From the NCBI GenBank assembly GCA_964016885.1, contig OZ024753.1:32736001-32800000 (forward strand): DNA of 64,000 bases, read 5' to 3'. Shown here piece after piece: positions 25,903 through 27,730 of the stretch. Position numbers and translations under genes: made by a program. Every line of letters begins with the position of its first letter. The first letter of the stretch is position 1. Under the pieces are notes generated by a model. It saw only the letters and a list, made by a program, of their open reading frames with translations, was not told the DNA's origin and made no database searches. The DNA comes from Eledone cirrhosa. Its lineage: Eukaryota.

Positions 25903-27283
25903 AGATATATGTTTATATATATGTATGTGTGTTATATATAGATATATATATGTGTATGTGTGTGTGTGTGTGTGTGCGCACAAAGATACATACATATATA
26001 TATGTATCTATATATCGATGCACTATATATATGGATAGTGTGAGTCACTTTGCTCGTATCTGTATTCGTTTTCGCCCTTCATGTGCTATAAACACTAAGG
26101 TACGCAGCAAAATATAATAGGACGGACTGCAGTCGATTTCATCAAACAAAAGAAAGAATGTAATATTGAAGGTAATTCTCAGATTCAGTGTGACAAAGTC
26201 TGAGACATGGCTGGGCCTTTCAATTTCAGGCACAGCCCATTCAAACAGTTTCCGTCTACCTAATATCACTCACAAGAGGTGAATCGACCCAAGACCTTTC
26301 ATCGAGATGTCGTGCAGTGAGATCGAACCAGGCTCATAAGAATTGCAAACCGAATTTCTTAATTATTCGTCCATTATACAGCCATATAGTTAGTGTGTCA
26401 TTTAAGCGCATCTATTGATATTAACATTTGTTACTGGAATTGAATATTCGTTTTGTTATGGCTTTCTCGTTAAAGTTTCGTTCGCTTTGAGTTTACAACA
26501 GATGTTATAGATATATCTAAAAATATACAGCCGACGAATGATTCTTTTAAACTTAGTGTCTTTGTTTAGAAAGTAACACACAATTCAAATCAATAGAATA
26601 GAAACCATTCAGTTATGTATGGTTTGTTATTTGAAATGCTTGGTCTATATTCTGAGGGCTCATCCAAGTATGACTTTATTAACGAGTTGTTTAACTGTTA
26701 CAACCCAAACATGTATGTATGTATATATGTATGTATAATCTATGCATGCATGTACATACACATGCACCGCGCGGTTAAACCACTGGGAGTGAAGGACCCC
26801 TAGCCTTTGTCAGGCCATTCTTCTAGGAGAAGGAAACTGGGATAACTCCGATATAACACCTGCGACTCAGTAGTTACCGATGATGTTGATCTTTTCTTCT
26901 TTTCGGGTTATAGATACTGTCGCTCATATAGTGGGATTGGCTCAGTGCACAGTCTTTCCTCACTTTAAATAATATCTTCACGCAGAGGCATTGCACGATA
27001 GCATTAATTAATAATTATTAATAATGGTATATCGTACAATGGCCATACTCGATAACGAGGGGGCAGCCATCATCGCATATACATTTACAAATATAAGCAT
27101 ATATATATATATATATATATACAATATAAATCATTCATGGGTGTGTACATAAAATGTTTGGTTGGCAGCCACGTACATTTCAAGTGAAATGCACAAAGAA
27201 ACGCTTAGTTGCCAATATATATATATATATATATATATCACAGGAAAAAAGAGAATCTGTGTTGCAACGAATGGAATTTATTG

Positions 27284-27364
27284 TACATATTACAATCGTT
27301 TCTCGGGCTGGTCGCTGTGATGATCGAACCTGACTCTGAAAATCGTAAAGTCCTCAGATACCTC
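27284..27364 (-). ncRNA. Hammerhead candidate, long-stem-II family (copy 1)
   Basis: Minus strand GGTAT-CTGAGGA-C-TTTACG...CGA-GAAAC-GATT-GTA-ATATG. Confidence 0.5.
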
Positions 27365-27410
27365 TTGATTCTACGAAGAGAATCAGTGTTGCGACGAATG
27401 GAATTTATTG

Positions 27411-27506
27411 GACATATTACAATCGTTACTCTGGCGACCAGATTGCGGCACGATCGATGTGATGATCGAACCTGACTCTGAAAATCGTAATGTCCTCAGA
27501 TACGTC
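27411..27506 (-). ncRNA. Hammerhead candidate, long-stem-II family (copy 2; core GAAA mutated to GTAA)
   Basis: Tandem duplicate of copy 1 and mirror image of 27527-27622. Confidence 0.45.
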
Positions 27507-27526
27507 TTGATTCTACGAACAATCAA

Positions 27527-27622
27527 GACGTATCTGAGGACCTTACGATTTTCAGAGTCAGGTTCGATCATCACATCGATCGCGCCTCAAGCTGGTCGCC
27601 AGAGAAACGATTGTAATATGTC
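27527..27622 (+). ncRNA. Hammerhead candidate, long-stem-II family (copy 3)
   Basis: GACGTAT-CTGAGGA-C-(~62-nt stem II)-GAAAC-GATT-GTA-ATATGTC; 7-bp stem I, GUA site. Confidence 0.6.
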
Positions 27623-27730
27623 CAATAAATTCCATTCGTCGTCGCAACACTGATTCTCTTTTTTTCTGTGATATATACTCTGCTCTATGAGAGCATCGAG
27701 TGCTTATACTTTTGATATATATATATATAT

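Follow-up and report, generated by a model that had tools for sequence, protein, structure and literature searches.

The window analysed here, a 64,000-nt stretch of Eledone cirrhosa DNA, contains two hammerhead-like units in head-to-tail order with an inverted third beside them. The question raised by this locus is whether the units belong to a retrozyme, a small RNA that would be released by tandem ribozymes, or to something else. A first-pass annotation had proposed a family of 130-145-nt retrozymes with a variant hammerhead carrying an inserted C. From this proposal the hammerhead, here assigned to type I, the long stem II and the covariation stand, while the retrozyme and the C insertion are not supported: the unit is the 5'-truncated end of a Penelope-like element (PLE) that encodes a reverse transcriptase (RT). 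Very probably, the cluster consists of three 5'-truncated 3' ends (pseudo-LTRs, pLTRs) of a Hydra-clade PLE, likely placed by a single insertion into a (TA)n tract, each with a predicted type I hammerhead that bears a long arm.

Layout of the cluster and its parent element

The features of the locus are as follows.

27215..27238, no strand: (TA)n target tract, left; a second tract lies on the right at about 27715-27731
27239..27377, minus strand: copy 1, 5'-truncated pLTR end, extending up to the (TA)n tract, where the element has its short 3' end
27283-27365, minus strand: hammerhead of copy 1; predicted cut after 27291, stem I mismatch, stem II arm with a 15-nt deletion
27376..27519, minus strand: copy 2, 5'-truncated pLTR end
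27410-27507, minus strand: hammerhead of copy 2; A13U (GUAA, 27428) and arm substitutions, predicted cut after 27418
27521..27670, plus strand: copy 3, inverted arm of the cluster
27526-27623, plus strand: hammerhead of copy 3, family-typical; CUGAGGA, C10.1·A11.1, 63-nt arm, GAAA, stem III ACGAUUGU
27671..27703, plus strand: partial PLE tail, the first ~33 nt of a ~80-nt extension, with a small GCUCU/AGAGC hairpin
32840..32992, minus strand: solo truncated end of sister subfamily B; hammerhead at 32875-32970, predicted cut after 32883

The arrangement of the three units was thus described correctly at first sight, as were the predicted GUA cut sites at 27291 and 27418, which lie 127 nt apart; the sites at 27615 and 32883 can now be added. 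In copy 3, AAUAAA follows 8 nt downstream of the predicted cut. The inverted arms 27392-27512 and 27521-27641 show 96% complementarity. Copies 1 and 2 share their start nucleotide; a short CTT overlap joins them at the 3' end of the element, 41 nt beyond the cut site. Compared with a natural family copy, copy 1 has lost 15 nt of the stem II arm and carries about 9 substitutions, so that the 127-nt spacing is not a property of the family. Copy 2 differs by 6 substitutions, among them GAAA to GUAA, the core mutation already noted, which is lacking in copy 1. Copy 3 has 3 changes and a 3-nt duplication, and one G-to-A change is common to all three copies. The subfamily B relative was detected at 32845-32968 (nhmmer E 1e-6); its core reads CCGAGGA, while most of subfamily B has CUGAGGA. 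Judged from their letters, both tandem ribozymes (copies 1 and 2) are damaged, and the local copies have likely decayed to a point where no monomer can be released. By itself, the locus is ordinary PLE debris.

Several further repeats were observed in the window. Inverted arms of 96 nt (27140-27235 and 27865-27960, 88%) enclose the whole cluster and were read as an older fold-back element, in whose central (TA)n later insertions collected. Another abundant short repeat occupies 27732-27864 between TA tracts; it has GAAAC, a GUC triplet and a GAGCUC segment that is self-complementary, and it is present in L007, L011, L017, L043 and L198 as well. A fold-back at 32665-32819 (69-nt inverted arms, 80%, 17-nt spacer) adjoins the subfamily B copy. 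A second, unrelated type I hammerhead (25290-25355, plus strand; canonical CUGAUGA, 31-nt stem II region, GUA-like site) sits in a folded-back end (25150-25490; 67-nt arms at 97%) that likely belongs to another PLE family. A weak match to the 5' half of the motif beside (TA)n (3739-3792, minus strand; nhmmer E 1.6) is probably an old fragment or due to chance.

Outside the window, the unit forms the 3' end of an element of approximately 4.8 kb and is also found directly upstream of an ORF with RT and GIY-YIG parts. Copies of the family are truncated at variable 5' positions, whereas their 3' ends lie at two fixed points ~80 nt apart, in (TA)n; they often occur in inverted pairs, but also solo. 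The ~80-nt extension corresponds in full-length copies to the 5' UTR leading to the ORF. Among 41 distinct 3' ends, 14 were scored with the ~80-nt tail and 27 without it, by a regular expression that missed at least one tail (L023). A small hairpin and a conserved CAUCGAGUGCUC motif lie in the tail (window 27671-27703; L139 720-800; L198 730-790), between the two inferred RT start sites, and are common to distant subfamilies.

About 1.9 kb upstream of the unit is common to L031, L036, L038, L040 and L042 and represents the 3' UTR. Beyond these 1.9 kb, L064 has a broken ORF with RT and GIY-YIG parts; this locus combines ORF fragments with both ends, measures about 4.8 kb from the ORF start to the 3' end and carries an inverted truncated copy at its 5' end. 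In L139, the order is unit, tail, RMRWRA, DKTGN, YRDDA, CNCRIGEEC and VVY..YIG, and in L064 YRDDA is likewise followed by VVY..YIG, as in an RT with a C-terminal GIY-YIG endonuclease. L065 and L066 add CKLCLSE and CRH (CxxC/CxH). Sister subfamilies with direct pLTR-ORF-pLTR order (L145, L146 and L150, among 20 long-ORF relatives) span 4.8-5.7 kb from pLTR to pLTR, and L140 (1817-4399, plus strand), of subfamily F, has an uninterrupted 861-aa RT-GIY-YIG ORF. In the 3' UTR of the element, a 52-bp minisatellite has expanded at at least two loci (C12:21434982-21439424 and C2:395536838-395538147).

The motifs comprise the Hydra set as defined in PMC8557442 (DKT, the CxCX5C linker, CxxC/CxH and no CCHH), with RWR/RWH in place of Hydra's RWK, and pLTRs in direct or inverted orientation, a tail and insertion into (TA)n agree with this clade too. 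The length deviates: about 4.8 kb with a 1.9-kb 3' UTR here, compared with usually less than 3 kb in the Hydra clade, a size that PMC8557442 gives as a description and not as a strict limit. We consider the element a Hydra-clade PLE, an assignment based on the motifs, with reference proteins compared by eye; the Neptune clade was dropped for Hydra on the same motifs. The RT piece gave 22,967 first-look candidates, and the endonuclease fragment matched GIY-YIG clusters of the atlas at 0.93. A Pfam search of all nine ORF stretches returned no match besides one chance row at E 0.17, and a homolog search with the endonuclease fragment yielded 0 of 249 candidates. The same search with the 861-aa sister ORF gave 50 matches, mostly unnamed and many with PF26215.

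The formation of the cluster may be explained by analogy with other PLEs, whose anatomy and dimer model have been described (PMC8557442, PMC4209133, PMC11167929). The element's protein would cut the TA target and start reverse transcription at two internal sites, on one target strand and on the opposite one; the product would be a mirror pair in which one arm carries a tail. Two internal start sites of the RT, which would explain the tail, have been reported together with extension on both target strands (PMC11167929). The extra same-strand copy (copy 1) likely arose by an early template jump or a microhomology duplication. For master elements, pairing between the hammerheads of the two pLTRs is predicted, by way of the 8-nt palindrome of stem III, and the resulting dimers likely cleave slowly. 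Such cleavage would free a unit-length RNA of ~5 kb rather than monomers of 127-145 nt.

The hammerhead motif and its side arm

We aligned 31 natural copies and scored conservation with one vote for each of the ten subfamilies. The core is preferentially conserved across the family: nine of the 11 core positions (C3, G5, G8, A9, G12, A13, A14, A15.1 and U16.1) are invariant over all ten subfamilies, and position 17 is A or C in each of them. The mean conservation is 0.94 for the core, 0.85 for the distal arm, 0.71 for stem IIa, 0.66 for stem I and 0.61 for the terminal loop. The majority of family A fits the type I core C3 U4 G5 A6 N7 G8 A9/G12 A13 A14/A15.1-U16.1/H17, with CUGAGGA as noted before; copy 2 of the window fails it by its A13U. 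Deviations are a U4 to C change in five of the ten subfamilies, A6U in two (F and I; in F in at least 7 copies) and an extra A after A6 in subfamily H.

The 10.1-11.1 pair, usually a paired G-C, is G-C in only three of the ten subfamilies (C, F and D) and mismatched in the other seven (C·A, A·C, A·A or A·G, with C·A in families A, A2 and B); counted by sequence, it is unpaired in 21 of 30. Subfamily C is canonical, with CUGACGA, G10.1-C11.1 and GUC. Since family A aligns to subfamily C without a gap in this region, the supposed extra C is C10.1 facing A11.1. On this alignment it is a C·A mismatch in place of G10.1-C11.1 and not an insertion, as the sister subfamilies with the canonical pair also align without an additional nucleotide. 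The hammerhead looks to be under selection, but its catalysis may be relaxed, given the unpaired 10.1-11.1, A6U in F and I and the extra core A in H. A permuted, type-SGC hammerhead (PMC10085705) is not needed as a description, as the blocks stand in type I order.

RNAalifold returned no consensus pairs on the 31-sequence alignment; the structure was therefore drawn manually on the basis of this alignment. In this structure, 82.8% of 870 cells are paired, compared with 73.5% after shuffling and 29-38% in slid controls, and 85 both-side changes face 33 in the shuffles. Both-side changes occur in 14 of 29 pairs (five of seven in stem I, five of eight in stem IIa and two of four in stem III). Relatedness among the copies inflates these covariation counts, and two of five covariation measures were no better than shuffles, namely pairs with a both-side change (141/500) and further pair types (376/500). 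An independent set of 39 distinct matches, a fitted alignment that keeps a few truncated or unrelated rows, had 82.9% paired and both-side changes in 19 of 28 pairs. Whole-unit folds were no better than shuffles in seven of eight sequences (z -1.9 to +1.1). The stem I changes quoted earlier between a copy and the relative at 32876 keep the pairing. Stem III is an 8-nt self-complementary word that differs between subfamilies (ACGAUUGU, ACAUAUGU, ACGCGCGU, ACAAUUGU), in accordance with the palindrome seen at first (ACGAUUGU and ACAUAUGU), and 21 of the 31 copies can form the full 8-bp self-duplex. The alignment supports a genuine hammerhead motif of type I, whose stem III is palindromic and whose stems covary across subfamilies.

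The stem II arm comprises 60-63 nt, and the long stem II reported before is borne out by a gap between A9 and G12 of 63 nt in copy 3 and of 61 nt in the 32876 relative. Three short helices make up the distal ~45 nt of the arm, together with a bulge of 3 nt and an internal loop in which AGUC/YGAG is conserved. In this part, 16 of 34 positions are invariant over the ten subfamilies, and in its helices conservation exceeds covariation. Folded alone, the arm forms most of the proposed pairs in 26 of the 31 copies (at least 9 shared), whereas the minimum free energy fold has none of them in 5 and fewer than half in the window's B copy. Inspection by eye gave no support across subfamilies for a k-turn in the arm or for a pseudoknot between loop and stem III. 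Likely, the conserved distal arm is under selection of its own, as a structural or protein-binding module.

The design is abundant in the genome searched, which is TA-rich and comprises 3.0 Gb. A 31-place pattern for the 3' half of the arm gave 14,222 matches, compared with 1 for the control. First-look candidates numbered 1,579 for the family unit (the best about 95% identical), 1,063 for subfamily B and 2,695 for subfamily C; B and C came from searches with diverged copies, the other subfamilies from ORF-bearing loci. In other DNA, metagenome contigs gave 6 pattern matches, of which the model confirmed none (best E 0.021), and viral contigs gave 0. Rfam returned no hammerhead match on 27230-27900 (671 nt) at E ≤ 10, and for the whole window the best 150 of 470 rows were mostly microsatellite noise.

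Alternative explanations

The alternative that survives best is that the unit is a hammerhead-derived fold kept for dimerisation or RT binding, in which cleavage is no longer needed in family A and several sister subfamilies. We regard this as possible but rather unlikely. The non-canonical 10.1-11.1 in seven of ten subfamilies, A6U in two and the inserted A in one would fit it, and A6C as well as an insertion after A6 have been associated with low activity (PMC3088659). Moreover, cleavage was dispensable for insertion of a Poseidon PLE in vitro (PMC11167929). Because inserted copies extend beyond the cut site on its downstream side, their template was either uncut or re-ligated there. However, nine core positions are invariant and position 17 is always A or C, and mismatches at 10.1-11.1 also occur in the published PLE table (PMC8557442 File S2), where U·U is common and C·A is found once, in PLE-X1_cBra. 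A U·U mismatch at this position has been reported in PMC3088659 too.

A small non-LTR retrozyme family, whose tandem units cleave as dimers and whose 127-145-nt monomer circularises and is re-inserted by PLE enzymes, now seems highly improbable. It would agree with two same-strand hammerheads 127 nt apart and with their common start nucleotide, and local tandem duplication of pLTRs has been proposed as the origin of such elements (bioRxiv 10.64898/2026.07.22.740005). However, the head-to-tail junction has a single genome match at up to 1 mismatch, the window itself, while the element's own junction at the same point has 1,522 (control 0). A looser tandem pattern gave 0 genome matches; it misses the window as well, because of copy 1's substitution. 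Among 36 distinct family loci (39 fetched minus 3 duplicates, a sample biased towards the best-scoring ones), adjacent same-strand units occur only in the window, and adjacent inverted pairs in ten, the window included. Within 400 nt, the first 100 listed clade matches contain 10 inverted pairs and 1 same-strand pair; the latter, like another at 581 nt, is made up of members of different subfamilies that inserted separately.

The window itself argues in the same direction. Its sole tandem pair has A13U in copy 2 and an incomplete arm in copy 1, instead of complete hammerheads in consecutive units. The terminus of copy 1 is the element's 3' end, which lies outside any such circle, and a read-through transcript across the locus is predicted to fold copies 2 and 3 into a long duplex. 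In other copies the unit is contiguous with the RT-endonuclease ORF and is not a non-coding, non-autonomous unit. The locus thus does not correspond to a non-LTR retrozyme as defined in PMC7229834 and the bioRxiv preprint. The retrozyme reading is largely refuted; at most, the pair is an isolated, dead step in that direction. Where pLTR ends stand head to tail in a single pair, this is no evidence for a retrozyme.

A MITE akin to DNA transposons, with a duplicated TA target, terminal inverted repeats and an incidental likeness to hammerheads, would account for inverted ends with TA flanks but can practically be discarded, since 5' truncation is variable, solo copies exist, the tail is on one arm, core conservation and covariation are present and full-length copies are continuous with an RT ORF.

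Relation to published hammerheads and meaning

Seen as Hydra-clade pLTR ends, the units can be compared with known PLE hammerheads. The Hydra clade of C-terminal EN+ PLEs (Craig et al. 2021, PMC8557442) includes Hydra-1_Obim, and the same paper describes pLTRs, inverted 5'-truncated copies, tails and (TA)n targeting in PLEs. Our comparison covered 34 rows of its File S2 with a CUGA core, 26 of them from the Hydra clade. In these 26 rows stem II has 3-7 bp with loops of 3-10 nt, in contrast to the arm of 60-63 nt found here; the longest loop among all 34 is 35 nt, in a non-Hydra element. Stem III, an 8-nt palindrome, also sets our family apart from the Hydra clade.

Palindromic helix III and low dimer activity have been described for pLTR hammerheads of PLEs (Cervera and De la Pena 2014, PMC4209133). 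Our family resembles these minimal hammerheads by its type I motif in pLTRs, by a palindromic stem III that implies dimer cleavage, by mostly solo copies from truncated PLEs with opposite-strand pairs 100-700 bp apart, and by many covarying families in one genome. It differs in three respects: helix II does not exceed 7-8 bp there, whereas we found a multi-helix arm; a truly extra nucleotide stands between 9 and 10.1 there, without a counterpart here; and G10.1-C11.1 is conserved there but mismatched in most of our subfamilies. With metazoan non-LTR retrozymes (PMC7229834; bioRxiv 10.64898/2026.07.22.740005) the family shares the type I hammerhead, pLTR-related sequence and a local head-to-tail pair; unlike them, it has no tandem arrays or shared junction, possesses an ORF-bearing master, and both of its tandem ribozymes are damaged.

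The unusual feature is the long, conserved stem II side arm on a predicted self-cutting motif. A 60-nt stem II was not found in the literature searched on PLE hammerheads; the supplements of PMC4209133 and of the bioRxiv preprint may contain long-stem-II examples. The family presents a very abundant hammerhead design that is missed by Rfam and absent from the PLE hammerheads found in print. We tentatively propose, as an idea with perhaps one chance in a few of being right, that the distal arm represents a further RNA module, joined to the hammerhead but under selection of its own, which could serve for instance as a tertiary brace or as the place where the Hydra RT/endonuclease docks. If true, the ribozyme could owe to this module its tolerance of non-canonical cores (C·A or A·C at 10.1-11.1, A6U, an extra core A), and protein binding would be linked through it to the cleavage or circularisation of the ~5-kb RNA of the element. 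The subfamilies carry the same arm on a canonical core (C), a C·A mismatch (family A), A6U (family F) and an insertion (family H), which makes the role of the PLE hammerhead testable; with more than 14,000 copies, this series from canonical to deviant cores would then be a ready test of PLE hammerhead function.
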